NCBI GenBank assembly: GCA_017521465.1
Contig: JAFXCN010000020.1
Location: 5,797-69,796 of the forward strand
Direction of reading: 5' to 3'
Length of the DNA: 64,000 nt
Origin: Clostridia bacterium
Lineage (GTDB): Bacteria > Bacillota > Clostridia > TANB77 > UBA1234
Position numbers and translations under genes: made by a program
Notes under the pieces: generated by a model
What the model was told of the DNA's origin: nothing
What the model saw: the letters and a program-made list of their open reading frames with translations, nothing else
Databases searched by the model: none
Shown: piece after piece, positions 2,327 to 39,913 of the stretch
How the letters are laid out: each line of letters opens with the position of its first letter
Numbering within the stretch: the stretch's first letter is position 1

Positions 2327-2358
2327 TGGGCAGGCGTAATGTCTGCCCTTATTTGCAT
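2327..2358 (+). terminator. rho-independent terminator after recA
   Basis: GGGCAGGC..TCTGCCC hairpin followed by a T-rich tract. Confidence 0.5.
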
Positions 2359-2379
2359 TATATTAATTAGGAGAAAATT

Positions 2380-2820: not shown

Positions 2821-2852
2821 TTTATAAAATAATTTGAAAGGTGGATTTTTAT

Positions 2853-3668: not shown

Positions 3669-3682
3669 AATAGAGGATAGCA

Positions 3683-4414: not shown

Positions 4415-4449
4415 TACATAATCATAGTAATATTTGGAAAAATATTACT

Positions 4450-4923: not shown

Positions 4924-5170
4924 ACGTCCGTCCAGTGAACACTTTGTGTCGGACAGAAAAATTCAGTCAGCGCACACTTTGTGTCGGACAGAAAAATTCA
5001 GTCAGTGAACATTTGTGTCGGACAGAAAAATTCAGCCAGCGCACACTTTGCGTCGGACAGAAAAATTCAGCCAGCGCACACTTTGCGTCGGACAGAAAAA
5101 TTCAGCCAGCGCACACTTTGCGTCGGACAGAAAAATTCAGTCAGTGAACATTTGTGTCGGACAGAAACTG
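4924..5170. repeat. tandem array of about 7 copies of a 34-35 bp unit (core GTCGGACAGAAAAATTCAG..CACACTTTG)
   Basis: Measured period is 35 bp (e.g. GCACAC at 5041, 5076, 5111). Two unit variants are present (CAGCGCACACTTTG and CAGTGAACATTTG). There are no unique spacers. Confidence 0.9.
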
Positions 5171-5298
5171 ATTAAAAGAATAAAGAATAGTGAATAAATA
5201 AAAATTTATTCCTCAATATTTAGTCATTATTCTTTAAATTGTGCATAGCACAATTTATTTTGCACATACTAATTTAAAAATAATTTAGGAGGTAGAGT

Positions 5299-5814
5299 AT
5301 GAACGAACATCCAATTGAAGGGCTTATGAATACTGCTATGAATAATTTGAAAGATATGATTGATGTAGATACAGTTGTTGGTGATGCGATAGATTGTGGT
5401 AATAATACGACGATAATTCCTATATCCAAAGTTTGTTTTGGTTTTGCTGCTGGTGGTAGTGAATTTAATAGTGAAACATTAGAACAATATAGTAAAGAAG
5501 GTATTGATGAAGATATCTCATACAAACTTCCTTTTGGAGGAGGTAGTGGAGCAGGAGTTAATATTGCACCAATTGGTTTTCTTGTTGTTTCTGATTCTGG
5601 TGTCAAAATGTTACCGGTAAATCATTGTTCTGCATTAGATAAGATTCTAGATTATGTTCCAGATGTTCTGAATAAATTAATGGATATGTGCAGTAAAGAA
5701 AAGACATATAGATATGAAATTTATGAAGATGTAGGTAATGATTGTACTTGTGGATGTAATGAGGGAGAAGAATGTACTTGTGACAAAGAAAAAGAAGATG
5801 AGGAAGAAGATTAA
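5299..5814 (+). CDS. ytfJ: sporulation protein YtfJ (GerW family) with Cys-rich acidic C-terminal extension
   Basis: Conserved GerW/YtfJ core (FGGGSGAGVNIAPIGFLVV). The C-terminus CTCGCNEGEECTCDKEKEDEEED is an atypical addition. Confidence 0.8.
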   Translation: MNEHPIEGLMNTAMNNLKDMIDVDTVVGDAIDCGNNTTIIPISKVCFGFAAGGSEFNSETLEQYSKEGIDEDISYKLPFGGGSGAGVNIAPIGFLVVSDSGVKMLPVNHCSALDKILDYVPDVLNKLMDMCSKEKTYRYEIYEDVGNDCTCGCNEGEECTCDKEKEDEEED

Positions 5815-5905
5815 AAGAGCTATTTTATAGCTCTTTTTCTATACATAGGTTTCTTGATTTTTATAGTATAATATGATAATATTTTTTGAGAAATGTGAGG
5901 TAGAT

Positions 5906-7444
5906 ATGAAAAAAGATAATATTAAAAAAACATTTAGTATTATATTTGTTATAACTCTTGTCGTTAAGGCATTAGGACTACTTAGGGATATTGTATTTGC
6001 TAAATATTATGGAACAGGATATGTAGCTACAGCTTTTTTTGCCGCTACTAGAATACCTACTCAATTAATTGACATAATTTTAAGCTCGGCAATTATATCT
6101 GTTTTTGTGCCTGTTTTTAATGAAATTATGCAAAAAGAAAGTAAAGAAAAAGCTAATTTATTTGCACAAAATTTTGTTAATATAGTTGCTTTAATTTCGA
6201 CTGTAATATCAATTTTTGGGATTCTTTTTGCGCCACAGGTAGTTAATCTTTTGGCAGGAGGATTTGATGTTCCAACTTATAATCTTACAGTTGAATTAAT
6301 AAGAATTACATTTCCAATGGTCATTTTTACTGCTGTAGCTTTTTCTTTTGTTGGCTTTTTACAGTCATATAAAGAGTTCAATGTTCCAGCAATGATAAGT
6401 GGTATTTCAAATATATGTATAATTTTATTTTTGATTTTCTTTAAAGATAAATTTGGTATACATGGTGTAGCTGCTTGCATGACATTTGCATGGCTTTTAC
6501 AAGTTTTGGTGCAGTTACCTTTTGTAAAAAAATATGGATATAAGTTTGGTTTAAAAATAAATTTTAAAGATGAAAATATTAAAAAGGTTGTAAAGCTAGC
6601 AATACCAATATTAATAAGCACAGCGGTGTTGCCAATAAATAATTTAGTAGCTACGAGAATTGCTTCTGGAATTAATGATAGTGCCGTTGCAACTTTAGAA
6701 TATGCATATAAATTATTTTTAGTAATTTCAGGGGTGTTTACTTATGCGATTGGAAATATAATCTTTCCGGATTTGTCTCGTGCAAGTACACAAAATGATA
6801 GTAACGAGTATATAGGCTTGATACATAAAGCATTAAAAATGATGAGCTTTTTATTAATACCATTAACAATAGGTATAGTAATTTTTAGACAAGATATAAT
6901 TTCAACAATATATCAAAGAGGAGAATTTACTGAAAACTCAACTATTGCTACTTCAGGTGCACTATTGTTTTATTGCTTAGGAATTTTAGGAAGTGGATTT
7001 GTAGAAGTCCTTAATAAAGCTTTCTATGCAAAGCAAGATACTAAAACTCCGCTTCTAATCGGTATAACAATAATTTCTATAAATATAGTTTCAAGTATGA
7101 TATTAGGAAATATAATGGGAGTTAATGGATTAGCATTATCTGCTGCAATTACAACTATTATAAATGCTTTAATACTTCTGTATATGGCAAATCGAAAACA
7201 AAAAGGAATAATTTCGAAAGAAATATTACTTTCACTTATCAAAATGTTTATCGCTGCAATTATTATGGGAAGTATAGTTTATGCATTAAATAATTACTTA
7301 ACAGTGATTCTTGAAGCAACATTTACTATGAATATAATAAGGATGATAATAGGTGCAGCAACAGGAGTGATTACATATTACATTCTCGCAACACTATTAA
7401 AAGTAAATGAATTAAACTTATTTAAGCTAGGAGGAAAAAATTGA
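5906..7444 (+). CDS. murJ: lipid II flippase MurJ/MviN family (may instead be a SpoVB-like paralog)
   Basis: 14-TM MOP-family protein with N-terminal LGLLRDIVFAKYYG motif. Start at ATG 5906 behind RBS GTGAGGTAG. Confidence 0.8.
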   Translation: MKKDNIKKTFSIIFVITLVVKALGLLRDIVFAKYYGTGYVATAFFAATRIPTQLIDIILSSAIISVFVPVFNEIMQKESKEKANLFAQNFVNIVALISTVISIFGILFAPQVVNLLAGGFDVPTYNLTVELIRITFPMVIFTAVAFSFVGFLQSYKEFNVPAMISGISNICIILFLIFFKDKFGIHGVAACMTFAWLLQVLVQLPFVKKYGYKFGLKINFKDENIKKVVKLAIPILISTAVLPINNLVATRIASGINDSAVATLEYAYKLFLVISGVFTYAIGNIIFPDLSRASTQNDSNEYIGLIHKALKMMSFLLIPLTIGIVIFRQDIISTIYQRGEFTENSTIATSGALLFYCLGILGSGFVEVLNKAFYAKQDTKTPLLIGITIISINIVSSMILGNIMGVNGLALSAAITTIINALILLYMANRKQKGIISKEILLSLIKMFIAAIIMGSIVYALNNYLTVILEATFTMNIIRMIIGAATGVITYYILATLLKVNELNLFKLGGKN

Positions 7445-8868
7445 ATACGATAAAAGAAAGTTTTATTTTTCAATTTTTAATTACGATAATTAGCAAAATT
7501 GAAAATATGATAAAAAACAGTTGGATATATTCGTTATTGACAAAAGAAACTATTAGACCAAACGAGAACGGATTTTTTCTAAATATATTATATAGTTTAA
7601 TAGGTGTTTTAAGAAAAGTATTTAAGTTCTTAAAGTTAAACATTGTGTTTAAAGATAGTATTTTTGCAAAAACAGAAATTTGGATTGGACTAACGGTTGC
7701 AATGGCGCCAATACTTTCAACCATGCAAATGCTACTTTTGGTATTATTTACAACAATGTCTTTTGTAATAAAAATATGTATGGATGAAAATTTTAAATTT
7801 ACATACACACCGTTAAATACATGGGTAATAGTATTTGTTTTAATTTATTTGTTTTCAGGAATAGTATCTTTAGATATGATGAGTAGTATAAAAATATCAA
7901 TGCTTGTTATAAGCTTTATGATGTTTTATTTTGTAATTGTTAATAGCATTACGACTAAAAAACAATTAAAAGTTATACTTAATATATTTGTAATAATAGG
8001 CGCATTAGTTTCATTATTTGGAATTTATCAATATATATTTGCGGGTTCGTTTGCATCATCATCATTCGTAGATAAAGAAATGTTTGAAGATATAAAAACA
8101 AGAGTAAATGGAACTTTTGATAATCCAAATGTTTTGGGTGAATATCTATTATTTGTAATTCCGATTGCCGCAAGTTTATTTTTTGCTGAAAAAGGTTGGA
8201 TTAAAAAAATATTTTATATGGGATTTGGCGGAGTATGCATTATATGTTTAGCTCTTACATATTCAAGAGGATGTTATTTAGGAATATTGCTTGCACTTGC
8301 TGTATTTTTATTACTTATAAATTTAAAATGGATTATAGCATTTATTTTAGGAATTATAGCAGCACCTGCTTTTTTACCGCAATCAATAATTAATCGTTTT
8401 TCTAGTATAGGAAATATGGCAGATAGTTCGACATCATATAGAGTATCAATTTGGAAAGGTGCAATTGATATGATAAAGGATTATTGGTATAGACCAATAG
8501 GACAGGGAACAACCGCTTTTAATAGTATTTATCCTTTATATTCTTATAGTGGTGTTGGGGCACAGCATAGTCATAATCTTTTTTTACAATTATTAATAGA
8601 AACAGGAATAGTGGGTATAATTTCATTTTTAGGAATTATATATAAATTCTTTCAAACTGTATTATGTGGTTTGAAGAAAGCTAAAGAAGCTTTTTACAAA
8701 TATTGTTTTATTGGTTTTGCTTCTGGAATGATAGGATTTTTGTTGCAAAGTATTTTTGATAATACTTGGTACAATAACAAAATAATTTTAATATTTTGGA
8801 TTTTTGTAGCATTATCTGCTACTACAAGAAATCTTTCTGATATGGAGGTTAAATGTGAAGAAAATTAA
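7441..8868 (+). CDS. O-antigen ligase (Wzy_C) family membrane protein
   Basis: Polytopic protein with a periplasmic-loop motif typical of the WaaL/O-antigen polymerase family; TTG start after GGAGGA. Confidence 0.65.
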   Translation: MNTIKESFIFQFLITIISKIENMIKNSWIYSLLTKETIRPNENGFFLNILYSLIGVLRKVFKFLKLNIVFKDSIFAKTEIWIGLTVAMAPILSTMQMLLLVLFTTMSFVIKICMDENFKFTYTPLNTWVIVFVLIYLFSGIVSLDMMSSIKISMLVISFMMFYFVIVNSITTKKQLKVILNIFVIIGALVSLFGIYQYIFAGSFASSSFVDKEMFEDIKTRVNGTFDNPNVLGEYLLFVIPIAASLFFAEKGWIKKIFYMGFGGVCIICLALTYSRGCYLGILLALAVFLLLINLKWIIAFILGIIAAPAFLPQSIINRFSSIGNMADSSTSYRVSIWKGAIDMIKDYWYRPIGQGTTAFNSIYPLYSYSGVGAQHSHNLFLQLLIETGIVGIISFLGIIYKFFQTVLCGLKKAKEAFYKYCFIGFASGMIGFLLQSIFDNTWYNNKIILIFWIFVALSATTRNLSDMEVKCEEN

Positions 8869-9991
8869 AGTATTAAATATAATTACTGATAGTAATATTG
8901 GTGGAGCTGGCAAATGTGTTATTACATATTCTAATAATTATGACAAAGAAAAATATGAAATAGTTGTTGCAATGCCACAAAATAGTTTACTAAAACCAGA
9001 AATTGAAAAAACAGGTGTTAGAGTTATTGAAATTCAAGGGTTAAGAGATAAATCATTTGATATTCCTGCTATCAAAAATATTAGAAAAGTTATAGAAGAA
9101 GAACGACCAGATATTGTTCACACGCATGCTAGTTTATCAGCAAGAATAGCAGCTAGACAATATGAAGATTGCAAAATAGTTTATACAAGGCATTGCGATT
9201 TTCCTATTAGTAAGATATATAAATATAAAATAGTTAGGTGGCTAAATAAAAAGATAAATGAAAGTTTAACAGATAAAGTAATAGCTACTTCTGAACAAGC
9301 TAAAGAGAATTTAATAAATCAAGGTTTGAGCGAGAAGATTATTACAACAATATTAAATGGTGTAAATAAAATGCCAGAAATATCAGAAGAAGAAAAGAAA
9401 AAAATAAAAGAAAAATATTCAATAAAATCTGATGAAATTGTTGTGGGATATTTAGCACGTGTGGAAGAATTAAAAGGTCATAAATATTTTATTGAAGCTG
9501 CTAAAATTGTTTCAGATAAGTTTAAAGGTAAATATAAGTTTTTGATAATGGGAAATGGCTCATATGAAGAAGAAGCTAAAAGATTAGTAACGGAATTGAA
9601 ATTAGAGGATACGGTTATATTTACAGGCTTTATAAAAAATGTACATGAAATGTTGAATATTTTAGATATTCAAATTAATGCTTCATATTTATCAGAAACA
9701 ACTAATTTAGCATTGTTAGAAGGGATGAGTTTAGGAGTACCAACTGTTGCGACTAAATGTGGAGGAACACCCAAAATGATTGATGAACGTCAAAATGGAT
9801 TACTTGTGGAAAAAGCTGATGCACAAAGTTTAGCTGAAGGAATAATTAACATTACAAGTGATGAAGATAATTACCAATATATGAAAAAAAGAAGTATGGA
9901 AATTTATGAAGAAAGATATACATCTAAAATATATGCTCAGAATATAGAAAAAGTATATGAAAGTTTGGTGAATAAAAATGAAAATAATTAA
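8855..9991 (+). CDS. glycosyltransferase family 4 (GT-B, group 1)
   Basis: C-terminal EGMSLGVPTVATKCGGTPKMI...NGLLV motif of GT4 enzymes. GTG start overlaps the upstream gene. Confidence 0.85.
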   Translation: MKKIKVLNIITDSNIGGAGKCVITYSNNYDKEKYEIVVAMPQNSLLKPEIEKTGVRVIEIQGLRDKSFDIPAIKNIRKVIEEERPDIVHTHASLSARIAARQYEDCKIVYTRHCDFPISKIYKYKIVRWLNKKINESLTDKVIATSEQAKENLINQGLSEKIITTILNGVNKMPEISEEEKKKIKEKYSIKSDEIVVGYLARVEELKGHKYFIEAAKIVSDKFKGKYKFLIMGNGSYEEEAKRLVTELKLEDTVIFTGFIKNVHEMLNILDIQINASYLSETTNLALLEGMSLGVPTVATKCGGTPKMIDERQNGLLVEKADAQSLAEGIINITSDEDNYQYMKKRSMEIYEERYTSKIYAQNIEKVYESLVNKNENN

Positions 9992-10469
9992 AGATAAAAA
10001 ATTGTTTGGAAAGATCAGTATTTTTGACATGATTATAGCTATAATTGGTGTACTTGTTATTGTATTTGCTTATAATTATTTGTATTCTTCAAATAGTGTA
10101 AAAGTCGGTAATACGTACACTAATGTTAGTTTTCAAATTAAGTTAGATAATTTACCAGTAGGTACAAGTGAACAAATTAGTAGCGGTGATTTAATATATG
10201 ATAACGAAACTAATGTATACATTGGTAAGGTAACTGATTATGAGACACAAGAATTTAAAAGAATTATAGAAGACTATGAAAATAAAAAATATGTTGAAGC
10301 AGTGGTGCCTGATAGAGAAACAGTAATATTAACTGTTGAAACTTCTGTATATGATACAGGTGCGGATTTAATTACAGCAAATAATTATTATGTAAAAGTT
10401 GGAAAAGAATTACATCCTCGTGGTCCATCATATGCTGGTACAGGATATATCATTCATATTGATAGATAG
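9978..10469 (+). CDS. DUF4330-like membrane-anchored protein
   Basis: N-terminal KKLFGKISIFDMIIAII signal-anchor followed by a beta-rich domain; paralogous to the next gene. Confidence 0.4.
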   Translation: MKIIKDKKLFGKISIFDMIIAIIGVLVIVFAYNYLYSSNSVKVGNTYTNVSFQIKLDNLPVGTSEQISSGDLIYDNETNVYIGKVTDYETQEFKRIIEDYENKKYVEAVVPDRETVILTVETSVYDTGADLITANNYYVKVGKELHPRGPSYAGTGYIIHIDR

Positions 10470-10479
10470 GAGGTATACT

Positions 10480-10959
10480 ATGGATAAAATAAAAATTGGG
10501 AAATTAAATCTATTAGATATAGTAATAATTGTTTTATTAATATTATGTGTTGCTTTTGCGATATTCAAATTCATGCCAAAGAACAATACTATAAGTGGAG
10601 AAGAACAAAGTAATACTTTTTCGTACACAATTAGAGTTGAAGGCATATCAAGCACTTCTTCAGATATGATAAAAGTTGGAGATAATATTTATGACAAAGT
10701 TACAAATACTCAAATAGGAACAATCACTGATTTGAAAATAGAACCGGCATTAGGAATAATCGAAGATCTTGATGGTAAATATATAAAGGCTGAAATGCCT
10801 AATAAAATTGATGTTGAGATAACTGCTAAAACTGAGGGAAAAGTACAAAATGGTGAATATATTGCAAATGGACTTATAAGAATATTAGTCGGTCAAACAA
10901 AAGAAGTAAAAACAAAATACTGGATGGCAAGCGGATTTGTAACCGAAGTGAATAGTTAA
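10480..10959 (+). CDS. DUF4330-like membrane-anchored protein (paralog)
   Basis: Start at ATG 10480 behind RBS TAGGAGG. The track's 10399 start overlaps the previous gene and is unlikely. Confidence 0.4.
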   Translation: MDKIKIGKLNLLDIVIIVLLILCVAFAIFKFMPKNNTISGEEQSNTFSYTIRVEGISSTSSDMIKVGDNIYDKVTNTQIGTITDLKIEPALGIIEDLDGKYIKAEMPNKIDVEITAKTEGKVQNGEYIANGLIRILVGQTKEVKTKYWMASGFVTEVNS

Positions 10960-15116: not shown

Positions 15117-15190
15117 TGGAGGCGCCAATCAGATTTGAACTGATGATCAGGCTTTTGCAGAGCCGTGCCTTACCACTTGGCCATGGCGCC
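15117..15190 (-). tRNA. tRNA-Cys (anticodon GCA)
   Basis: Minus-strand sequence GGCGCCATGGCCAAGTGGTAAGGCACGGCTCTGCAAAAGCCTGATCATCAGTTCAAATCTGATTGGCGCCTCCA folds as a cloverleaf. Anticodon loop is CTGCAAA; T-loop is TTCAAAT; 3' end is CCA. Confidence 0.85.
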
Positions 15191-17469: not shown

Positions 17470-20400
17470 ATGAAAAAGAAAATTATAATAAGCTTTATAT
17501 TGATATGTATAATTGTGGCGTTAATAGCCTTTTTTATACATAACCAAAATAATCATTCAATTGATACAAAATTTGTAAATTATCCTACATTTACAGTAAC
17601 AGCTACAAGCGAACATAACAATCTTATAGATATTGATACATCATTTAACTTGAAAGCAAGTGAGGGAACAACACTTGAATTAGTTCAATCTTGTTTTTCT
17701 ATTACGCCAAAAGTTGAATATGAAATAAATGAAATCTCAAAAGATTATTATGCCTTAACATTAAAAGAAGAATTGGAAGCAGATAAAATTTACAATATTG
17801 AATATAAGACGGATAAGGCGCCATATAAATGGTCATTTCAAACAGAAAAGAAATTTAATGTTGCAAACTTTTATCCAGGAAATAAAGAATATGTATTGCC
17901 ATCAACTGTAATTGAGATAGATTTTACATATATTCCAGATGACAATATTAGAGAATTTTTTGCTATTTCTCCAAATGTCGAAGGTAAATTCTTATTTGAT
18001 GAAAGAAGAATAAGATTTGTTCCAAATGGAAAGTTAGCGTTAGCCACTACATATGAAGTGACAATATTAGAAGGATATGGTAATAAAGAAAATGACGAAA
18101 AAACAACAGAACAATCATTTAGTTTTTCAACTACTATATCTGAAAAATATGGAACTATGTCAAATCTTAAAAAAATAGATTTTGATGCGGATAAATATGC
18201 TTTTGGTGAAAATCAAGATATTTATATCAGTCATTATAATTATTATGACGACAATATCACTAATTACAAAATAGCTATATATCAATATAAAAATTCTGTT
18301 GATTTTGTAGAGGATTTAATGGCCAAAGAAGTTTATGGTAATTATCCAGAATTAAAACCAGTAGACTTAACAAGATTGGATAAAATTGATGAAAAAGAAT
18401 TGCTAGCTACTGATGTTGTTGAATATGAATATTCGTGGAAAAAAGCTGTACCAATAGATGCTAATCTGTCAGAAGGATATTATATTGTTGTGATAACTAT
18501 TAATGGAATTGATTACTACATGCCGCTTCAAATAAACAATACTATTGCAGTTACACAATATTTTGATGATAGATTGATGGTGTGGGTTCATGATTTAAAA
18601 ACACAAAAACCATTTGCAAATGCAAAAATAAAGATTGATGATATAGACATGGGAGTGACGAATAAAGAAGGTTATTGCGTGCTAACTGGAATTGAACTTC
18701 CGGAAGATAAAGATTTATTAGTACAAATATATGCAGAAAACAGAACTACGATATATGATGTTATAACTTCTCATAATTATTGGTCGGGTGCAACGTCAGA
18801 ATATGATAATACATATATTAAATTTGATAGAGATACATTTAAGACGGGAGAGATACTTAATACTTGGGGATTTATAAAAGATAGACGAAACATTGAAACA
18901 AAAGAATGTACATTAACAATAAAATCATCTTCAGAAGGAGCTGTTTTTGAAGAAAGGAAAATTACACTTGATGAGTTTGGAACTTTTAAGGCTGCTTTTG
19001 ATTTAACTAATTATACAAGTGGTTCTTATTTTTTATCTGTCTATGCGAACGGAAACCAAACTAGTGAAAAATGGTTTGAAATAAGAGATTATGAAACAAA
19101 TTCTTATGATGTATCTATGTCGTTAGATAAGAAAAATGTAAGAGCTGGTGAAAAAATAACGTGTTCTTTAAATGTAAAGCTATTTGATGGAACACCATTA
19201 GAAAATATACGTTATAATGCCAAAATAGAAATGGGCGATAAAGTAACAACAAAAGAAATAACAACAGATGCAAATGGAGATGCAAGCTTCGAGATAGATA
19301 CATCAATATATTATACATATAACAATATTATATATGGTTATGTCCGTTTGACTCCAATTGGTATAGAAGATCAAAATTATCTTGCTAAATCTTTTTCAGT
19401 ATATCCTCATGAAGAAACCTTTGAGACAAATGGGAAATATATTGATAAAGAGAAAATGTATGAATTTAATATAGAAACTTATTATAATGATTACACTAAT
19501 ATGGATGAAGTGAAAAAAGGTGCATTAACAAATAGAACGGGAAAAGTAATGCTTACTAGATATAGAAAGGAAAAAGTGGTTACATCAACTTATTTTGATG
19601 AAAATACAAAAACAATGAAAGAAAACTATAAAATAGTTAAACACTTTGACGGATTTGAAGAACTTGAATACACAACTGTCGATGGAAAAGCTACTGTTAG
19701 ATATGCATCGCCATATGCTACAAGAGACGAAGGTGTAGTCGAATATACAGCATCGTTCTATTCTGAAAAGGATTGGAAAAATATAAGTGATAGATGGACA
19801 TATGTTAGTGAAGAATATGACGCTAACGAAAATCAAGTAGATTTCTTAATGAATAATTACTATCTAGATAGTGATGCGGAACCATATGGATGCAAAGTTG
19901 GACAAGAAATAAATTTGAAAGTTGTTAATGTTACTGATGATAAAACACCAGAAAATGTATATGTAATGTACGTTTTAAAATCTGCGAAAGGCACTGAAAT
20001 AATATACACAGATAAAGCTGAATATAAACTGAAATTTGAAAAAGAATTTGGAGCAGATATTACTATTGAGGGATTTGTATTTGATGGAACAACAATAAGA
20101 GCTTTAGGTGATTACTACTATGACACTCAATATAGATTTTCTCTTGCTGATGAAGAATTAGATATGCAAGTTGAAGTTGAGTTTGATAAAGAGCACTATA
20201 AACCAGGCGATACAGCTAAATTAAAAATCGTAACAAAAGTTGATGATAATCCTGTAAAAGCGGCGGTCAACTTAAGTGCAGTTAATAAGGAATACCTTGC
20301 AGCAAATCCGCAATATAATGGTGATATACTGTATGCATTGCATAATTATTATAATTTTTACATTAAAGCAGAAAGTTTCACTCATACAATACTTTCTTCA

Positions 20401-22236
20401 TCGTTTGAAGGTGGCGGTGGAGGCGGTGGCGATGGAGTTCGTATAGACTTTGCAACCACAGCATTATTTGACACTGTTTATACCGATGAAAATGGTGTTG
20501 CAGAATATGAAGTAAAACTTCCGGACAACATTACTACATGGAATTTGAATGTAGAAGCTACAACTAAAGATTATAGAGCTACATCTATAGATAAAGATAT
20601 TGTTGTTACCTTGCCATTCTTTTCAACTGCAGTTATGAATGAAAAATATTTGGTGGGAGAAACACCAAGTGTAAGCATTAGAAGTAATGGTACAGATGTA
20701 AAAACAGGTGATAAAGTTACATATGATGTGACTATAACGGATACAAATAATAAGATTACGAAATTTACTAAAGAATCTGAAATAGGAAAATATTTAAATA
20801 TTTCGTTGGGCAAACTTGAAAGGGGAGAATATACTCTTCTCGTGAAAGCTAGTTGTAATGGGTTGACAGATGCTTTCGAAAGAACTATAGAAGCGGTTAA
20901 CACTTTACAAGAAACAACAAATACAACACCATGTGATTTGATTAAAGGCGAAAAGATTAGTGTGGATAAGGGAAGCGGTGTAGTATATCTATATAACGCA
21001 GATATAGAAAAAATCTTTGATGATTTAGTGAAATTATCAATGTTACCAAGAGTTAGAAACGATCAAAAGGTTATATCATATATGACAGACAATCTTTGGA
21101 GAAAATTGCAAAATATAGATGCGCCAGCTGATAAGCCATATATAAATACATATAATGGAATAGAATTAATTGAAGATTTTTCGAATAAAGATTCATTATT
21201 AACAGCCAAAATTGTTTCGACAGGATATTTTGCAGAATCGAAATCACAAGATATCATAAAATATTTTAAAAATATTATTAAAAACGATGATATTGATATT
21301 AGAGAAAAACTATATGCATATTGGGGATTGGCAGCATTAAAAGAGCCAGTGTTAAATGATATAAAATTACTTGATTCAGAATTTGCATATATGGATAGTT
21401 ACGAAAAAGCTATAGTTGGTTTGGCATATGCTGATATAGGCGATTATGTGAGTGCAAACAAAATTTTTGATGAACTAATTTTGCTTGCTGATCAAGCGTC
21501 AAACGAAACATATGAGTATATAACAATGTTAGCATTTAAACTAAATAGGCAAGAAAGAGAAAACTTATATGATAAATATCTTTCGCTAAATAGAGAATCA
21601 GAATATTCGAATTTTGTAAAATTATTTAGAATACAAAACGAAGTGCAAAATAATGTTGAAGATGCGTATGTAAATTTAGAAGTAAATGGCGAAGAAAAGA
21701 AAATTGATATTAAAGGAATCAATATAGAAAGCTTTGCATTTACATATAAAGATGAGATAAAAATAAAAGACAAGAGCGACAATCTTCTTTCAAGATTTAG
21801 AAGAACAGAAGAAATAACTTCTAAAAATGCACCAAAAATAAATGCGATTTCGAAAACATATATAGTTAATGGTAAAGAAAGTAATACTTTTAAAATGGGA
21901 GATATGGTTACTGTTACAATAAAACTTGATTATAATGAATTGGCAAAAGAAAATATACCATATCTATATACGGTAGAAGATGTAATGCCAAACTGTTTCA
22001 AATATTCTTATGAAGAAGATTATGACTATGAACATTTAAAAGTAGATTCGCCATATAAAAAAGACGGACAAAAATTATATTTCTATGTTCATAAATGTAA
22101 CGAAGGTGAACAATACATCTCATATACTGCTATAGCAACTGCGAAAGGTGAATTCGTTTCAGATGGGGTAATACTTAAAAATACAGAAAACAAAGTAATA
22201 GATTATCACAAAATAGATAATATAATTGTAGAATAA
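17470..22236 (+). CDS. alpha-2-macroglobulin-family (MG-domain) giant protein, N-terminally membrane anchored
   Basis: 1588 aa with N-terminal TM. A2M-family signature FATTALFDTVYTDENG...LPDNITTWNLNVEATT...LPFFSTAVMNEKYLVGE. A run of 7 Gly precedes it. Confidence 0.6.
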   Translation: MKKKIIISFILICIIVALIAFFIHNQNNHSIDTKFVNYPTFTVTATSEHNNLIDIDTSFNLKASEGTTLELVQSCFSITPKVEYEINEISKDYYALTLKEELEADKIYNIEYKTDKAPYKWSFQTEKKFNVANFYPGNKEYVLPSTVIEIDFTYIPDDNIREFFAISPNVEGKFLFDERRIRFVPNGKLALATTYEVTILEGYGNKENDEKTTEQSFSFSTTISEKYGTMSNLKKIDFDADKYAFGENQDIYISHYNYYDDNITNYKIAIYQYKNSVDFVEDLMAKEVYGNYPELKPVDLTRLDKIDEKELLATDVVEYEYSWKKAVPIDANLSEGYYIVVITINGIDYYMPLQINNTIAVTQYFDDRLMVWVHDLKTQKPFANAKIKIDDIDMGVTNKEGYCVLTGIELPEDKDLLVQIYAENRTTIYDVITSHNYWSGATSEYDNTYIKFDRDTFKTGEILNTWGFIKDRRNIETKECTLTIKSSSEGAVFEERKITLDEFGTFKAAFDLTNYTSGSYFLSVYANGNQTSEKWFEIRDYETNSYDVSMSLDKKNVRAGEKITCSLNVKLFDGTPLENIRYNAKIEMGDKVTTKEITTDANGDASFEIDTSIYYTYNNIIYGYVRLTPIGIEDQNYLAKSFSVYPHEETFETNGKYIDKEKMYEFNIETYYNDYTNMDEVKKGALTNRTGKVMLTRYRKEKVVTSTYFDENTKTMKENYKIVKHFDGFEELEYTTVDGKATVRYASPYATRDEGVVEYTASFYSEKDWKNISDRWTYVSEEYDANENQVDFLMNNYYLDSDAEPYGCKVGQEINLKVVNVTDDKTPENVYVMYVLKSAKGTEIIYTDKAEYKLKFEKEFGADITIEGFVFDGTTIRALGDYYYDTQYRFSLADEELDMQVEVEFDKEHYKPGDTAKLKIVTKVDDNPVKAAVNLSAVNKEYLAANPQYNGDILYALHNYYNFYIKAESFTHTILSSSFEGGGGGGGDGVRIDFATTALFDTVYTDENGVAEYEVKLPDNITTWNLNVEATTKDYRATSIDKDIVVTLPFFSTAVMNEKYLVGETPSVSIRSNGTDVKTGDKVTYDVTITDTNNKITKFTKESEIGKYLNISLGKLERGEYTLLVKASCNGLTDAFERTIEAVNTLQETTNTTPCDLIKGEKISVDKGSGVVYLYNADIEKIFDDLVKLSMLPRVRNDQKVISYMTDNLWRKLQNIDAPADKPYINTYNGIELIEDFSNKDSLLTAKIVSTGYFAESKSQDIIKYFKNIIKNDDIDIREKLYAYWGLAALKEPVLNDIKLLDSEFAYMDSYEKAIVGLAYADIGDYVSANKIFDELILLADQASNETYEYITMLAFKLNRQERENLYDKYLSLNRESEYSNFVKLFRIQNEVQNNVEDAYVNLEVNGEEKKIDIKGINIESFAFTYKDEIKIKDKSDNLLSRFRRTEEITSKNAPKINAISKTYIVNGKESNTFKMGDMVTVTIKLDYNELAKENIPYLYTVEDVMPNCFKYSYEEDYDYEHLKVDSPYKKDGQKLYFYVHKCNEGEQYISYTAIATAKGEFVSDGVILKNTENKVIDYHKIDNIIVE

Positions 22237-22536: not shown

Positions 22537-23862
22537 ATGATGTTAGTAGGACCTATGAAGAAAAAAATGGTAACAACGGTTATTCTTGTTGTTATTATAT
22601 TGACAGTAATATTTGGGGTTATAGGCTTTTTATTGTTGAGTGGTAAGCAAAATCAAATTGATGAATTAATGAAAAAAGCAGAGGTAGTAGAAAGATATGT
22701 GTTTACAGAGAACTTTCCTGCTGGTCACGTAATTGATGGTGATGATTTGACCTTAGCTGTTGTAAAAGCGGAGAGCACACCAGATAATTCATACAGTTTT
22801 CAAACTGTTGTAACTCCTGGCAATAGAGAGGAAATATACCAATATACAGGAACAACATACAAAACTGGTGAACTTGTAAATACGTTAGAGTTGCTTATAG
22901 GAAGAACATTAAAAATTAATGCATCAAGAAAAACAACATTAACTGATGAAATGCTTGTTCCAATCGATGAAACACCTTCAGACGATTTGAGACTTGAAGA
23001 ATTTACAATGATTAATCTTCCAAGTGATGCGGTTGATGGTGAATATATTGATGTTAGAATAATGTTCCCTACCGGTGAAGACTTTACAGTTTTACTTGGA
23101 AAGAAAATAGAAAAGTATACAGATAGTACAATTTTCTTAAAACTTACTGAAGATGAAATTTTAACTATGGGAAGTGCTATTGTTGAAGCTTATATGTATG
23201 AAGGAACAAAAATATATGCAACAAAATATGTAGATCCTTCTAATCAATTATATAGTTATAAAAAAATAGACTATGTTGCTAAATATAAGGCAGCTGTAGC
23301 TAGTTTGATAGAATCAAAAGAAGAAAAGAATCTTGAAGCGATTATTGAAAAATTCAGAACTGCTAGTCCAGAAGAATATGAAGCCTTATTAGCAGAATAT
23401 CCAGATACATATAGAGAAGAACTTGCAAAAAGACATTCAAATGAAATTAAAGTAATGGAAAGAGACGTTGAAATCAATGAGATTGCACAATACATTGGAT
23501 TGAACGAATATGAAACTGAAGAACTAAGAACAGCAATCGATGAAAAGAATGAAGATGTAATTTCAAAATATGAAAACAAAATTGTAACATCTAAGAAACA
23601 ATTAGCAAGAACTTATCCTGTAAAACCAGAAGTTTTATCTGTAATAAAATCTAATCCGAATATTCTAAAAGAAATTAAGGATACTTTTGATGTTACAGCT
23701 CAAATATCAGGCGAAGTTCAAAAATTTGATCCAACATTATATGGAGATGAAAATAGTATTCAAGAAGCATATGAAAAATATGTAGAAAACGTAAAAAATG
23801 AACTTCAAACACAAAAAGATGAAAGAGTAAAATATTTAAATTCATTAATTGCAGGAGAATAA
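22537..23862 (+). CDS. CpaB/RcpC-like pilus assembly protein with long C-terminal helical extension
   Basis: N-terminal TM. SAF-like segment VVERYVFTENFPAGHVIDGDDL. CpaB-like beta-rich region (YIDVRIMFPTGEDFTVLL). C-terminal 200 aa is a charged helical extension. Confidence 0.5.
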   Translation: MMLVGPMKKKMVTTVILVVIILTVIFGVIGFLLLSGKQNQIDELMKKAEVVERYVFTENFPAGHVIDGDDLTLAVVKAESTPDNSYSFQTVVTPGNREEIYQYTGTTYKTGELVNTLELLIGRTLKINASRKTTLTDEMLVPIDETPSDDLRLEEFTMINLPSDAVDGEYIDVRIMFPTGEDFTVLLGKKIEKYTDSTIFLKLTEDEILTMGSAIVEAYMYEGTKIYATKYVDPSNQLYSYKKIDYVAKYKAAVASLIESKEEKNLEAIIEKFRTASPEEYEALLAEYPDTYREELAKRHSNEIKVMERDVEINEIAQYIGLNEYETEELRTAIDEKNEDVISKYENKIVTSKKQLARTYPVKPEVLSVIKSNPNILKEIKDTFDVTAQISGEVQKFDPTLYGDENSIQEAYEKYVENVKNELQTQKDERVKYLNSLIAGE

Positions 23863-23874
23863 AAATAGGAGGAT

Positions 23875-24630
23875 ATGCAAATGAAAAGTATAGGATTTGT
23901 TGGCGAAATGGATAAAACAGGATTACTTTTATGCGTTGGAAAAATGATAGCCTCGCTAGGTGCAAAAGTAATGTTTGTTGATGCTACAAAAGCACAAAAA
24001 ACTAGATATGTAGTTCCACTTGTTATGGATAATGAAACACAAGAACAATATATTACACAACATGATGGAGTTGAAGTTGCTGTAGGATTTAACAATATAC
24101 TTGAGCTAAAAAAATACCTATTATCGAAAGGCGAAGATTTTTCAGAATATGAATATATCTTAATAGATAGTGATAATGAAGAAATGTGTGAAGAATATGA
24201 TATGAAAAGTGCAAACAAATTATTTTTTGTTACAACCTTTGACAAAATGCATTTGGCTAAAGGTTTAGAATTATTGAAATTTGTATGCGCATCAAAAAGA
24301 AGAGAAGATCCAAACGGTTCAGTTAATATTGAAAAAATATTATCATATACGCAAACGAATATTAAAGCAGTTGATGATAGATATATAGAAAGACTAACAG
24401 AAAACTTACCTATTAATTGGGCAACAGAAAAAATAGTTGTATCATATGACGAAGGTGATTTATCAGCCTTTATTCAAAATCAATACAGAAACAAAATAGA
24501 ATTTAGAGATATGACACCACAAACAAAAATAGGTATTATTGATGTTGTTTCTGTGGTTACAGGCGAAGAAAAAACAAGACTTAAAAAAGTTTTAAAAAGT
24601 ATTGAAAAAAATGCAAGATTTATTGGGTAA
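23875..24630 (+). CDS. ParA/MinD-fold protein with degenerate Walker A (TadZ/CpaE-like pseudo-ATPase)
   Basis: IGFVGEMDKTG occupies the place of the deviant Walker A KGGVGKTT. YILIDSD is Walker-B-like. Confidence 0.45.
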   Translation: MQMKSIGFVGEMDKTGLLLCVGKMIASLGAKVMFVDATKAQKTRYVVPLVMDNETQEQYITQHDGVEVAVGFNNILELKKYLLSKGEDFSEYEYILIDSDNEEMCEEYDMKSANKLFFVTTFDKMHLAKGLELLKFVCASKRREDPNGSVNIEKILSYTQTNIKAVDDRYIERLTENLPINWATEKIVVSYDEGDLSAFIQNQYRNKIEFRDMTPQTKIGIIDVVSVVTGEEKTRLKKVLKSIEKNARFIG

Positions 24631-24654
24631 TAGATTGAAAGGGGAGTAACAAAA

Positions 24655-25488
24655 ATGCCAATAGTATCATTTTGGAGTACAGTAGAATCTACTCAAACTT
24701 CTACAACATCTACTGCTGTAGCTGTAGCAAATGCTATAGCTACTAGACCAGATGTAGGATATAAAACACTATTAATGCAAACACACTATAATAATTTTGA
24801 TATGGAAACTTCTTATTACAACATGAATAAAATGTCTTCAAAAGGAAGTCTTGATATCGCAGATACAGGAATAGACGCGTTAGATAGATTGTTAAGAAGT
24901 AATAAATTAACACCTGAAAATATACCAAACTATGCAAAACCAGTTTTAAAAGGCAAATTAGAATTGCTTTATGGTACATTTAAAAATGATAGAGATTCAT
25001 ATGAAAGAGTCTTAGAAACAATGCCTATGATAGTCGACTATGCAAGTCAACTATATGACATGGTATTTGTAGATTTGAATAGAGGTTATGGTAATGCAGC
25101 TATGACCCAAATTCTTCAAAAATCTGATTTAATAGTTTTAACTATGAGCCAGAAAACAGAGGTATTGAAAAAATTATTTAAAGATGTAGAAGATTTAAAA
25201 ATCTTCAAAGAAAAACCAGTAATTTCAGTTATAGGTAGATATGATAGATTCTCAAAATATAATTCAAAGAATATTGCTAGAACATTTAACTATAAGAAAC
25301 CTATATACTGTATACCATACAATACACAATTCTTTGATGCTTGTAATGAAGGAAAAGCTTTGAATTTCTTCGTTGAAAATATGAATGCAGATATTGCAAC
25401 AGATAGAAATGGATATTTTATTTCAGAGGTAAATAAGATATCAAATCAAATTATGGAAGAATTAAAATCGAAATTAGTTGAAAGATAA
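24655..25488 (+). CDS. ParA/MinD-fold protein lacking a P-loop (second TadZ/CpaE-like)
   Basis: IVSFWSTVESTQTSTTSTAVAVANAIA replaces the P-loop. MVFVDLNRGYGN and LIVLTMSQ segments follow the ParA architecture. Confidence 0.45.
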   Translation: MPIVSFWSTVESTQTSTTSTAVAVANAIATRPDVGYKTLLMQTHYNNFDMETSYYNMNKMSSKGSLDIADTGIDALDRLLRSNKLTPENIPNYAKPVLKGKLELLYGTFKNDRDSYERVLETMPMIVDYASQLYDMVFVDLNRGYGNAAMTQILQKSDLIVLTMSQKTEVLKKLFKDVEDLKIFKEKPVISVIGRYDRFSKYNSKNIARTFNYKKPIYCIPYNTQFFDACNEGKALNFFVENMNADIATDRNGYFISEVNKISNQIMEELKSKLVER

Positions 25489-25512: not shown

Positions 25513-27432
25513 ATGTTTATTAACTATACATTGATAGGCATTTTAATATTTGGTGCAATATTTTTCTTTGCATATATCTTCGTGAAAAAAGATAATACTA
25601 TGTTACCTAAAAACGAACGTGATAGCAGAATGTATACTGTTGAGCAAATGACTAAATTTATTAAAGCGAGACTTGACGAAATAACAAGAACAAACCTTTA
25701 CGATATAGGATTATCTGAAGAAGAATTGAAAAGAAGAAAAAGCAAAAAATATGAACTAAAGAAAGCCTTAAAAGGTTGTACATATGGAGATGTAAACGAT
25801 AAAAAATATATTAAAGAGTTGATATTTGATTTATTACATAGAGAATATGGAGTGAATCAAGTAAATATCACTAATGCTATAGATTTTGATAACGTTGATA
25901 AACTTACAACAATTGATAAGTTTGACATATTGTTATATATGTACAAATTACAATATGGATATAATGCATTAACAGAATTAATAGTGAAATATAACTTAGA
26001 TGATATAAAAACGGTATATGGTTCAACAACTCCATCATATGTAATTACGCCAGAAGAAATTGATGATATTTTTGAAAAAGAATATGATTATCTTTCTTTT
26101 GAAGATAGATTAAATATTTTATCTCAAAGAATATATCAAAATTATAAAGGATTTAGTGTAATTGATGAAATAAGAGATATGAACATAGATGGTATCTCTG
26201 GAGGTGTTTCTGGTCTTCCAGAATCATTTATGTATCAAGTTGCACAACTTGGTGATTATATTAAGCAAACTCAAGAAAAAACTATACCAAGAGCTTACGA
26301 TAGTGTATGGATTTTCTTTAGAGGTAAATCAATCCAAATGGCTTGTTTGTCATTTGGCTCATATGATGAATTAAAGAGAGTATGTCAAAATATTTATAAA
26401 TACAATAATCCAGGACAATTATCAGATACAAATGGATATAAGATTAATGAAATGAAAGACGGTTCCCGTGTCGTTGTTGTTAGACCAAGTATGTCTGAAT
26501 CATGGGCGTTCTTTGTAAGAAAGTTCGACACACCAAATGCCGTTCTTGAAAACTTGATCAAGCAACCAGGAAAAGAATTTGTAATACCAATGCTAAAATT
26601 CTTGGTAAAAGGTGCCAGAGTTACAGCTCTTACTGGTGAACAAGGTTGTGGTAAAACAACAATGCTTATGGCGATGATAAAATATATTTATCCAACTCTA
26701 AACATAAGAGTTCAAGAAACTGCATTCGAGTTACACTTAAGAAAAGTTTATCCAAATAGAAACATATTAACATTTAGAGAGACGGATACAGTTTCAGGAC
26801 AAGAAGGACTTGACCTTCAAAAGAAAACTGACGGTGCTGTTAACATCCTTGGAGAGGTTGCTACTGACGCGGTTGCTGCTTGGATGATTCAGATGGCCCA
26901 AGTTGCTTCAAAATTTACAATCTTTACTCACCATGCTAAAACATTTGAAAATTTAATACTATCTCTTCGTAACTCATTATTGAAGATTGGTATGTTTAAC
27001 AATGAAAAAGTTGCTGAAATACAGGTAGTAAACGTTATGAACTTCGAAGTACATCTAAAAAGAGGTTTCGATGGTTCGAGATTTATAGAAAGAATAACAG
27101 AATGTATTCCGATAAAGGAAAAAAATCCATATACATTTGATCACAGAAATGAAACAACATTAGAAGGGAAATTTGATAAATTTATGGATAATGCAACTCA
27201 CTATTTCCAAAAGATTACAGAAACAGAAACATTCAAAGCTGTTAATATAATTGAATTCCAAGATGGTGAGTATGTAATAAAAAATAGAATTTCAGATGAA
27301 AACATTGCATTAATGAAAGAAAACATGTCTGATGAAGACCAAAAGCTTTTCAAAGAATATTTGGATGAATATTTTGGTGGTGCAGGTGGTTATGTAGCTT
27401 CTAATACAAATAGAAGAATAGTAATTGATTAA
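25513..27432 (+). CDS. CpaF/TadA/VirB11-family secretion ATPase with N-terminal TM anchor and long N-domain
   Basis: Walker A TGEQGCGKTT. Asp/Glu boxes NILGEVATDAV. His box FTHHAKT. N-terminal hydrophobic segment LIGILIFGAIFFFAYIFV. Confidence 0.75.
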   Translation: MFINYTLIGILIFGAIFFFAYIFVKKDNTMLPKNERDSRMYTVEQMTKFIKARLDEITRTNLYDIGLSEEELKRRKSKKYELKKALKGCTYGDVNDKKYIKELIFDLLHREYGVNQVNITNAIDFDNVDKLTTIDKFDILLYMYKLQYGYNALTELIVKYNLDDIKTVYGSTTPSYVITPEEIDDIFEKEYDYLSFEDRLNILSQRIYQNYKGFSVIDEIRDMNIDGISGGVSGLPESFMYQVAQLGDYIKQTQEKTIPRAYDSVWIFFRGKSIQMACLSFGSYDELKRVCQNIYKYNNPGQLSDTNGYKINEMKDGSRVVVVRPSMSESWAFFVRKFDTPNAVLENLIKQPGKEFVIPMLKFLVKGARVTALTGEQGCGKTTMLMAMIKYIYPTLNIRVQETAFELHLRKVYPNRNILTFRETDTVSGQEGLDLQKKTDGAVNILGEVATDAVAAWMIQMAQVASKFTIFTHHAKTFENLILSLRNSLLKIGMFNNEKVAEIQVVNVMNFEVHLKRGFDGSRFIERITECIPIKEKNPYTFDHRNETTLEGKFDKFMDNATHYFQKITETETFKAVNIIEFQDGEYVIKNRISDENIALMKENMSDEDQKLFKEYLDEYFGGAGGYVASNTNRRIVID

Positions 27433-38744: not shown

Positions 38745-38860
38745 CTGGCAGGATTTTTTCGTCGGACACAAAACACATGATTTTGGACAATTTATGTCCG
38801 ACGTAAAGTATTCGCTGGGCGGACGTTTGTGTCCGACGAAAAGTGCTTGCCTCGTTTTGT
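38745..38860. repeat. GTCGGACA-family repeat copies in mixed orientation forming a 19-bp inverted repeat
   Basis: TTTTTCGTCGGACACAAAA (38766-38784) and TTTGTGTCCGACGAAAAGT (38836-38854) are inverted. Internal copy ATGTCCGACGTAAAGTATTCGCTGGGCGG. Confidence 0.8.
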
Positions 38861-38893
38861 GCAAAATGTTATCATTATTGTATGGAGGTTTCT

Positions 38894-39913
38894 ATGATTA
38901 GTTATGATGATTTGCCAGAGATTTTAGTTAATTATATGAATTATAATGCTAACTTGAATAGGTCTAAAAATTCAATTAATGAGTATCGTTATGATCTTAC
39001 TAGATTTCTGAAGTATATTAAAGTTTTGAAATTAAAAATAAAGACGAATTCTTTGGATGAGGTTGATATTAATGATGTTGACGAGAAGCTTTTGAATAAA
39101 GTTACTTTGAATGATTTGTATGCGTACATGACTTATTTGCGTGATGAATGTGGTAATTCTGCTACTTCTCGTGCTCGTAAGGTTGCTAGCATTAAAGGTT
39201 TTTTTAGATATTTGCATGTTAAGGCTAAACTTATTGATGATAATCCAGCTAAAGAATTAGAAAGTCCTAAAGTTGGTAAACGTTTGCCGAAGTATTTATC
39301 GCTTACAGAAAGTCAAGAATTGCTTGATAAAGCCAAGTCTGGTGATATTCATATTAGAAGTAAACGCGGAAAATCAGAACAAGATCTTAGTGAGAATCAA
39401 AAGAAGTTATCGGCTCGTGATTTTGCTATGATTACTTTATTTTTAAATTGTGGCATGCGTCTTTCAGAACTTGTTGGAATTAATTTAGAACATATTAAAT
39501 TTGATGAATGCAATTTGACTGTTATAGGAAAAGGAAATAAAGAAAGAACAGTCTACTTAAATAAAGCTTGTATAAATGCTCTTAATGAATATTTAAAAGT
39601 TAGACCTGATATTGATGGCAAAGATAAAAACGCTCTTTTCTTGAGTGAAAGAAAAAAACGTATAAGCAATAGAATGGTTCAAACTACTATTTCGGAATAT
39701 CTTAAAGCGGTTGGCTTAAGTGGTTATTCAACACATAAATTAAGACATACTGCGGCAACGCTTATGTATCAAAATGGTGTTGATGTAAGAGCGCTTCAAG
39801 AAATATTAGGACATGAAAGTATTGGTACAACTGAAATATATACACATGTAGATAATTATCAAATAAGACAAGCGATAGAAAACAATCCGCTTGCTGATTA
39901 TAAAGCAAAATAA
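38894..39913 (+). CDS. tyrosine recombinase, XerD/XerC-like
   Basis: C-terminal catalytic motifs HKLRHTAAT...LGHESIGTTEIYTH. ATG 38894 behind GGAGG. Hairpin terminator 39914-39942. Confidence 0.85.
   Translation: MISYDDLPEILVNYMNYNANLNRSKNSINEYRYDLTRFLKYIKVLKLKIKTNSLDEVDINDVDEKLLNKVTLNDLYAYMTYLRDECGNSATSRARKVASIKGFFRYLHVKAKLIDDNPAKELESPKVGKRLPKYLSLTESQELLDKAKSGDIHIRSKRGKSEQDLSENQKKLSARDFAMITLFLNCGMRLSELVGINLEHIKFDECNLTVIGKGNKERTVYLNKACINALNEYLKVRPDIDGKDKNALFLSERKKRISNRMVQTTISEYLKAVGLSGYSTHKLRHTAATLMYQNGVDVRALQEILGHESIGTTEIYTHVDNYQIRQAIENNPLADYKAK

Follow-up and report, generated by a model that had tools for sequence, protein, structure and literature searches.

Two adjacent genes in a pilus-like cassette

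The 64,000 nucleotides analysed here (the window) come from a Clostridia bacterium (GenBank assembly GCA_017521465.1, contig JAFXCN010000020.1, positions 5,797 to 69,796 of the forward strand). They contain a cassette of pilus-like genes in which two neighbouring genes, A and B, lie between the gene of a SAF-type CpaB/RcpC-like protein and that of a CpaF/TadA-like secretion ATPase. Gene A (23881..24630, + strand) encodes 249 amino acids, predicted to form a stripped-down ParA/MinD fold with a shortened P-loop. Gene B (24655..25488, + strand) encodes 277 amino acids, predicted to form a full-size ParA/MinD fold with a lysine-less P-loop. Both products are deposited as 'hypothetical protein' (NCBI MBR4110895.1 and MBR4110896.1). 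The original prediction, made from the DNA alone, had described the two as mutually divergent pseudo-ATPases of the TadZ/CpaE kind that might form a heterodimeric scaffold. The comparisons reported below indicate that A and B are fixed, co-translated parts of a divergent Tad-like (type IVc-like) filament cassette of Firmicutes.

Two open reading frames run in the same direction through the interval, both on the + strand: 23875..24630 and 24655..25488. The start of gene A had been given as 23875, but it is better placed 6 nucleotides (nt) downstream, at ATG 23881, because an AGGAGG box (23867-23872) lies 8 nt from this ATG and just 2 nt from that at 23875, because MKSIGF is the N-terminus of every A homologue, and because the 249-residue product is identical to the deposited MBR4110895.1. 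Good ribosome-binding sites (RBS) precede both genes, and the motifs originally quoted for them, GEMDKT(G), STVESTQTSTTST, YILIDSD and YDMVFVDLNRG, were all located in the sequence. That A and B are chance open reading frames is ruled out by the numbers of their homologues and by a gene order that is kept at every examined locus. Hydrophobic-segment analysis gave no transmembrane segment in either protein, and both appear to be cytoplasmic and single-domain.

A ParA/MinD fold in both proteins

AlphaFold2 models built from family alignments have a mean predicted local distance difference test score (pLDDT) of 90.0 and a predicted template modelling score (pTM) of 0.89 for A, and of 92.2 and 0.91 for B; the underlying alignments are of shallow diversity, none of their members falling below 51% identity with the query. 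In both models the seven-stranded MinD/ParA-type P-loop NTPase fold is present and begins at residue 2-3, and in B the strand order and the register of Walker B are those of the MinD/ParA type. The best overall structural matches of the pair are MinD, FlhG, FleN, McdA and ParA-type proteins, not TadZ, and Foldseek matches B to the PDB entry 3ea0 at E 2.6e-11. A ParA/MinD (SIMIBI) fold is thus near certain for both predicted structures. This bears out the relationship that had been proposed for them, and a non-ParA fold was rejected on the strength of the confident models and structural matches. The residue equivalences given below were drawn from secondary structure, family alignments and weak hidden Markov model alignments, not from superposed coordinates. 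The last helix of A, considered as a candidate C-terminal amphipathic helix for membrane targeting, has the highest hydrophobic moment in the protein, a measure on which a MinD reference peptide did not score highly.

Sequence searches reach less far. Word-indexed searches returned 161 homologues of A and 152 of B at E<=1e-3, all at least 51% identical among the matches listed; the few with a named source are 'hypothetical protein' entries from metagenome-assembled genomes (MAGs) of uncultured Clostridia. An exhaustive profile search places B in what appears to be a large family, with 1019 cluster representatives (50% identity) at E<=1e-3 and 607 at E<=1e-10, mostly of 265-295 amino acids. The profile search for distant relatives of A gave close homologues only, among the matches listed. 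Curated models (Pfam CbiA, AAA_31 and ParA; NCBIfam MinD and ParA) had no match at E<=1 in A or B of the window, the sole match at this level being that of NF047398 to B (E 0.052). Models of TadZ/CpaE matched neither protein, and searches of the PDB with phmmer and with close-family profiles gave nothing useful for either.

Relatives of B that have the Walker lysine reach or approach the threshold of Pfam CbiA (27.5 bits in P0271, for a cutoff of 25.4), and among 55 diverse members of the family 13 match AAA_31, 10 CbiA, 9 AAA_KGGVGR and 4 CpaE_hom_Actino. Compared with PDB sequences, a broad B profile matches 3ea0 best (E 0.012), and the Walker-B strands align, with the B segment falling on YDYIIVD of 3ea0. 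In the A family, AAA_31 matches 9 of the 68 members, weakly (E at least 0.02), and the alignments of a broader A profile to MinD/FlhG structures are non-significant (E about 1) and served for register only. Neither BLASTP nor profile-profile comparison (hhalign) finds a significant relationship between A and B, so that paralogy of the two is not demonstrable by sequence. The mutual divergence claimed for the pair thus stands, both for the sequences and for the profiles.

Some relatives of B (P0300, P0310, P0317, P0324, P0339 and P0350; e.g., positions 4813-6873 of locus L039) carry long C-terminal tails of 170-550 amino acids. These tails are of low complexity, acidic and rich in Asn, with a conserved (E/D)SIDDL(I/L) motif at the end. 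A Rosetta-stone fusion of B with the ATPase was considered and rejected, as the long proteins of the family bear such tails instead.

The nucleotide sites of A and B

In the model of A, strand 1 runs from residue 2 to residue 7 and helix 1 from residue 13 onwards, which leaves five loop residues (GEMDK), 2-3 fewer than Walker A loops have. What remains of the P-loop, GEMDKT (residues 8-13; 23902..23919, + strand), has an acidic residue before the Lys, and it lacks the signature Lys and the glycines of the deviant Walker A motif KGGxxGK[ST]. The loop is short in all eight divergent lineages compared (GEMDKT, GGQDKT, GAYDKT, GAYEGS, GGFDKF, GAKEHS, GYVNKS and GATDKS), and the short form is ancestral. 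In the close A family, Lys12 is found in 45/68 members, Thr13 in 42/68 and Asp11 in 56/68, an acidic or amide residue preceding the Lys. Without reaching significance, the alignment to A. aeolicus MinD sets Lys12-Thr13 against the Walker GKT and pairs YDYVLID with YDYILVD of MinD; the YILIDSD segment of A likewise lines up with YDYILVDS, again non-significantly. The Walker-B-like strand YILIDSD (residues 92-98, of which DSSP assigns 92-97 to the strand; 24154..24174, + strand) is better kept at its end, with Asp at position 98 in 66 of the 68 members and at position 96 in 43, and an Asp34-Ala-Thr after strand 2 is invariant. Most of the helical switch-I insertion seen in B and MinD is likewise missing from A, the corresponding residues 39-56 being short and of low confidence. 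Given the truncated P-loop and the loss of most of the switch-I helical region in the model, phosphate binding by A is unlikely.

The P-loop of B is of canonical length, and its register could be fixed through relatives such as P0254, in which G-K-E-Q-V-G-K-T is a perfect GxxxxGKT. In this register the P-loop region STVESTQTSTTST (residues 8-20; 24676..24714, + strand) has Ser12 at the position of the signature Lys and Thr17 in place of the Walker Lys, and it keeps the Walker Ser/Thr as the invariant Thr18; the B of the window reads ESTQTSTT and has no Lys at either the signature or the Walker position. Thr18 is present in 72/72 members of the close family, Gln14 in 69/72 and Thr17 in 59/72, and none has Lys at position 17. 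Over 147 representatives of the broader family, the column of the Walker Lys holds Q, T, N and K in 45, 39, 20 and 14 proteins, the preceding Gly column holds G in 91 and A in 21, and the Walker-Thr column holds T in 124 and S in 15 (139/147 together). The Walker B/switch II segment YDMVFVDLNRG (residues 134-144; 25054..25086, + strand) includes the invariant Asp140 and Gly144, the former present in 145/147 representatives. The switch-I positions are Gln42 and His44, where MinD has Asp-x-Asp.

From these patterns B is very probably non-hydrolytic, and its site is constrained, not decayed. Nucleotide or Mg binding by B may persist, because the Walker-A Thr and the Walker-B Asp are invariant. 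The description of both P-loops as destroyed is therefore fair for A, where the loop is short and Lys-Thr is not family-wide, and overstated for B. Likewise, both Walker A motifs are non-canonical, as had been claimed, but B retains the loop length, Thr18 and Asp140, and that the two proteins are catalytically dead is something we infer.

The same residues bear on a reading that we consider rather improbable, in which B is a nucleotide-dependent switch of the TadZ type, working as an ATP-binding homodimer that hydrolyses slowly or not at all. A would then attach to B or to the ATPase as a regulator or adaptor in its own right, without pairing with B in a pseudo-symmetric heterodimer, and only A would be dead. 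The canonical length of the B loop and the invariant Thr18, Asp140 and switch-II Gly144 fit it well. So does the broad family consensus, H/K-G-Q-T-G-x-T, since its HGQTGxT form parallels the TadZ motif K/RGGxGxS/T, which binds ATP without the canonical Lys according to two recent reports (bioRxiv 10.64898/2026.07.08.737194; PMC13170226). Some relatives, moreover, retain GK[ST] and match CbiA. The match of the consensus to the TadZ motif is near, yet partial, and in the clade of the window the glycines of the P-loop are replaced too (S12-T13-Q14-T15-S16-T17-T18), the signature Lys/Arg is gone and the switch-I Asp has become Gln/His. In addition, A and B are always adjacent and their genes often overlap, which suggests that the two are stoichiometric partners.

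Conservation of the cassette across genomes

The order SAF/CpaB-like, A, B, CpaF-like ATPase was found in 41/41 loci whose sequence extends to these genes, from both Clostridia and Bacilli. These comprise 35 loci that were fetched first, from gut MAGs (roe deer, sheep, rabbit and Hadza humans) and Cohnella laeviribosi, and six loci of distant B relatives. The membrane protein, the pilin-like genes and a protein of roughly 400 amino acids follow downstream wherever the contig extends far enough. The junction between A and B measures +24 nt in the window and -11, -10, -4, -1, +2, +9 and +11 nt in other lineages; such tight or overlapping junctions are the pattern expected of translationally coupled partners.

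The association of A and B with the filament machine is thus near certain. We find it hardly credible that they are a cargo-positioning or partition module that merely stands beside the machine. Proteins of the ParA/MinD fold do position many unrelated cargos (PMC11407121), and the top structural matches of the pair are FleN, FlhG, McdA and MinD, not TadZ. But such a module would have to account for the place of A and B between the SAF/CpaB-like and ATPase genes in every one of the 41 loci, with operon-like spacing and no internal terminator, for the lack of a ParB/MinE-like partner gene, and for the absence from both proteins of the catalytic lysines needed for ATP-driven patterning of the ParA type.

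Some cassette proteins of Cohnella laeviribosi, Aneurinibacillus thermoaerophilus and Thermicanus aegyptius fall in shared clusters at 90% identity. This closeness across the three Bacilli suggests recent horizontal transfer of the cassette.

The upstream end of the cassette varies between lineages. In Cohnella (locus L035), the SAF gene is immediately preceded by the gene of a 451-amino-acid protein with a receiver-like N-terminus, whose ParA domain matches AAA_31 at 3.7e-11 and has the Walker A sequence KGGVGTT. This protein has the canonical TadZ/CpaE architecture and coexists with A and B. It lies within a region of the same locus (2299-7255) that also encodes, upstream of the cassette, a type IV leader peptidase (Peptidase_A24, E 4.6e-13) and two DNA methyltransferases. 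In two other, distant lineages a gene for a Hanks-type Ser/Thr kinase immediately precedes the SAF gene (L037, 4839-8235; L040, 6664-8163). The C-terminus of the kinase contains 'LWPQSGATT' and a weak match to the Walker-B region of B in L037, and 'GTGRGVGCT' with a CbiA match at E 0.026 in L040, and these features weakly support ParA-like C-termini. L037 also encodes an FHA protein, upstream of which lie the canonical Tad genes T2SSF, Flp1_like, TadE and Peptidase_A24. Since a kinase heads the cassette in L037 and L040 and an FHA protein is found in L037, the organisation hints at phospho-regulation of the cassette. The clade of the window has none of these upstream genes, and in it and several other clades, which lack a third protein upstream, A and B are kept nonetheless; in the lineage of the window, these are the only ParA-fold components of the cassette. 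Because they have no receiver domain, and because a TadZ-type protein coexists with them in Cohnella, we regard A and B as dedicated extra ParA-fold components and not as simple TadZ orthologues.

The proteins found upstream of the SAF gene in Cohnella, L037 and L040 invite another explanation. A and B could be independent monomeric adaptors on different parts of the machine, for example one on the SAF/CpaB-like or membrane protein and the other on the ATPase, with the upstream TadZ-type protein or kinase, where present, supplying the TadZ function. The lack of any detectable similarity between A and B agrees with this, as do their best-conserved patches, which differ (AVGFNN-LELKKYL-KGEDF in A, GIDALDRLLRSNKLTPE in B). 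We nevertheless think it quite unlikely, because A and B are kept in the clade of the window and in the several others where the third protein is absent, because ParA/MinD proteins are typically dimeric, and because overlapping A and B genes favour a complex.

Directly upstream of the cassette, the window also encodes an alpha-2-macroglobulin-like protein of 1588 amino acids (17470-22236), with MG2, A2M_BRD and A2M domains and an N-terminal anchor. It was considered as a core member of the cassette and rejected, since it is found only in the nearest relatives, L007 and L009.

The other genes of the cassette

All cassette genes except that of the ATPase are annotated as 'hypothetical'. The first (22537..23862, + strand) encodes the SAF-type CpaB/RcpC-like protein, of 441 amino acids, which has an N-terminal hydrophobic segment and is probably membrane-anchored. 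It matches TIGR03177 (pilus_cpaB) weakly, at E 1.2e-3, and its orthologues match Pfam SAF at E 1.8e-10 in L035 and 1.1e-6 in L040. The gene of the CpaF/TadA-like secretion ATPase (25513..27432, + strand; 639 amino acids; TadA in NCBI, MBR4110897.1) starts 24 nt after the stop codon of B, and the intergenic gaps of the window, of 16-24 nt, contain RBS boxes. The ATPase has the Walker A sequence GEQGCGKTT; its best match in the PDB is CpaF (E 1e-8, residues 269-535), and it matches TIGR03819 at E 3.1e-7, below the curated cutoff. Its N-terminus carries a predicted transmembrane anchor, a hydrophobic 19-mer (MFINYTLIGILIFGAIFFFAYIFV), together with roughly 240 additional residues, and the N-terminus of the Cohnella orthologue is similarly hydrophobic. 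To our knowledge, such a transmembrane segment and extension are unusual among motors of the TadA/CpaF type.

The ATPase gene is always followed by that of a polytopic membrane protein (27449..29809, + strand; 786 amino acids) with several hydrophobic segments, a candidate platform protein by position only. It has no match in Pfam or the PDB, and no similarity to T2SSF, TadB or TadC was found even when 13 members of its family were scanned. It may be a platform protein that has diverged beyond recognition, or else a new kind of protein. Four pilin-like proteins of 127, 128, 140 and 160 amino acids come next (29956..31722, + strand). They have N-terminal hydrophobic segments and a conserved leader of the MDNASKALIMAG type, their shared N-terminus reading M(D/E)N(A/V)SKA(L/I)(I/V)MAG before the hydrophobic helix. 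They have neither the Flp motif G/xxxxEY nor a Glu at +5, and they match nothing in Pfam, including Flp and TadE. The last gene (31733..32923, + strand) encodes 396 amino acids with an N-terminal membrane anchor and no Pfam match. A terminator-like hairpin (32929..32963, + strand), with a stem of 15 pairs and a T-rich tail, lies 6 nt past its stop codon and seems to close the operon; no terminator-like site was found on the + strand between 22537 and 26200. A scan for sigma-70 promoters found fewer sites here than in shuffled sequence, and in DNA so rich in AT it carries no information. No homologue of the prepilin (A24) peptidase was found in the 64-kb window. Overall, the resemblance of the machine to a Tad system is partial: its ATPase and SAF protein are as expected of one, and the membrane and pilin-like proteins match nothing.

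Elsewhere in the window, two adjacent, overlapping DUF4330 genes (9978-10959) follow a cluster of MurJ, O-antigen-ligase-like and glycosyltransferase genes (5873-9991). A lone tRNA-Cys (GCA) is encoded on the minus strand (15117-15190) between the genes of a PALP-family enzyme and a D-Ala-D-Ala carboxypeptidase; L001 likewise has the carboxypeptidase gene close to its cassette, and this suggests that the chromosomal neighbourhood is conserved. On the other side, a tyrosine recombinase of the Phage_integrase family is encoded at 38843-39913, and from about 38000 to 64000 the coding-strand bias and GC skew flip and the GC content rises to 0.41. This half of the window may correspond to an integrated element, or the change may mark a strand switch linked to replication.

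Comparison with known systems

The pair resembles TadZ/CpaE in its genetic organisation, since A and B adjoin a cpaF/tadA-like gene and lie directly upstream of it, as do tadZ and cpaE. It differs in architecture: the N-terminal atypical receiver (REC-like) domain of TadZ/CpaE is absent from A and B, and there are two separate, divergent proteins where the TadZ of E. rectale (PDB 3fkq) is a single protein that homodimerises. The TadZ/CpaE-like label that had been given to A and B consequently holds for their position upstream of a CpaF-like ATPase, and it fails on the missing receiver domain and on the TadZ-type protein that stands beside them in Cohnella. The atypical Walker A motif of TadZ is K/RGGxGxS/T (bioRxiv 10.64898/2026.07.08.737194), and TadZ is reported to dimerise on ATP bound with this motif and to hydrolyse little of it (PMC6668835, PMC13170226). 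This motif is found neither in the B of the window (S-T-Q-T-S-T-T, without the signature Lys/Arg and the GG) nor in the truncated loop of A. Cryo-electron tomography in Caulobacter showed the CpaF hexamer ringed by six CpaE dimers, which its authors suggest touch their neighbours through the REC domains (PMC13170226), and Bdellovibrio has a natural TadZ-TadA fusion that interacts with a polarity factor (bioRxiv 10.64898/2026.07.08.737194).

In structure, MinD, FlhG, FleN and ParA (Soj) are the best matches of A and B, but the signature lysine of KGGxxGK[ST], the Walker lysine and the switch-I Asp-x-Asp of these proteins are absent from the cassette pair. There is also no partner of the MinE/ParB type, and neither A nor B has a clear membrane-targeting helix. 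ATP-driven oscillation or patterning by A and B is implausible because the lysines, the switch-I Asp and such a partner are all missing. A C-terminal motif that we take to correspond to the 'IPxDxxvxxAxnxGxP'-like motif of E. coli MinD is recognisable as IPYNTQFFDACNEGKA in B and as (S/P)YDEGDLSAFIQNQ in A. The structure 3ea0 ('ATPase, ParA family', from Chlorobium tepidum) shares just 12-15% identity with the pair, and our literature search gave no confirmation that it is a TadZ-type protein. BcsQ, a MinD/ParA-family protein of cellulose secretion, differs in that it binds ATP with an intact motif and partners with BcsR and BcsE, and the cassette contains no cellulose synthase genes. No description of a paired arrangement like that of A and B was found in the literature searched. 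In sum, the mechanism of the pair is presumably closest to that of TadZ/CpaE, and its structure to those of MinD, FlhG, FleN, ParA and 3ea0.

A proposed role for A and B

Taken together, these results lead us to propose that A and B are a non-catalytic scaffold or adaptor of the CpaF-like motor, most likely as an A-B heterodimer, a proposal that we hold to be probable, if narrowly so. Its parts differ in strength. The non-catalytic status of the two proteins is likely, judging from their motifs, and the heterodimer is about evenly poised between existing and not, its support being indirect and coming from the strict co-occurrence of A and B and from their tight or overlapping junctions. In this proposal, neither A nor B would turn over ATP; for B, the expectation comes from the missing signature lysine, Walker lysine and switch-I aspartates. 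The two proteins would form a structural adaptor layer round the hexameric, membrane-anchored ATPase, as the CpaE/TadZ dimers do round CpaF, and an A-B heterodimer would replace the ATP-glued homodimer of TadZ. The signature lysine normally reaches across the dimer to the ATP of the partner, and its loss fits a dimer held together by protein contacts. B may have evolved from a TadZ-like, ATP-binding ancestor that was already poor in lysines, and it may have retained nucleotide or Mg as a dimerisation glue, A being the more degenerate partner.

Several observations weigh against this proposal. The Cohnella TadZ-type protein and the kinases of the two other lineages stand at the upstream end of the cassette, and such a protein may take the TadZ role and leave some different function to A and B. 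What marks the machine as Tad-like is the ATPase, the SAF protein and the N-termini of the pilin-like proteins; the 786-amino-acid protein has no similarity to T2SSF and the window encodes no prepilin peptidase. Finally, the purifying selection on the P-loop of B, seen in the near-fixed Gln14, Thr17 and Thr18, speaks against a dead site and for a function, in binding a ligand or forming an interface, that has been kept, and about 10% of B relatives retain GK[ST], which shows that the family is not uniformly inactive.

The proposal can be pushed further, and at this point it becomes doubtful. A and B might be an obligate pseudo-ATPase heterodimer that forms a nucleotide-independent ring around the membrane-anchored CpaF-like motor. 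The cassette would then stand for a branch of the type IV filament superfamily that had escaped notice in Firmicutes. The idea of a new branch comes from the platform, pilin-like and accessory proteins, none of which has a match among the known families. The presence of a kinase or TadZ-type protein, and sometimes of an FHA protein, at the head of some cassettes also raises the possibility that the Thr-rich remnant of the P-loop of B is a phospho-regulated interface and not a nucleotide site.

Significance

Proteins of the ParA/MinD type that work on secretion and pilus machines, such as TadZ/CpaE, BcsQ and FlhG, are poorly understood, including in their need for ATP. Here a ParA-fold module, seemingly duplicated into two dedicated partners, has lost the catalytic lysines, and it would serve as a natural separation-of-function case in which to study the scaffold role. 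The case is widespread in nature, as it is found in gut Clostridia MAGs from animals and humans and in cultured Bacilli. The analysis also provides usable annotations for the genes of the cassette and points to tractable cultured carriers (Cohnella laeviribosi, Aneurinibacillus thermoaerophilus and Thermicanus aegyptius). Its practical impact is modest, and it would extend a known theme of filament machines rather than overturn it.

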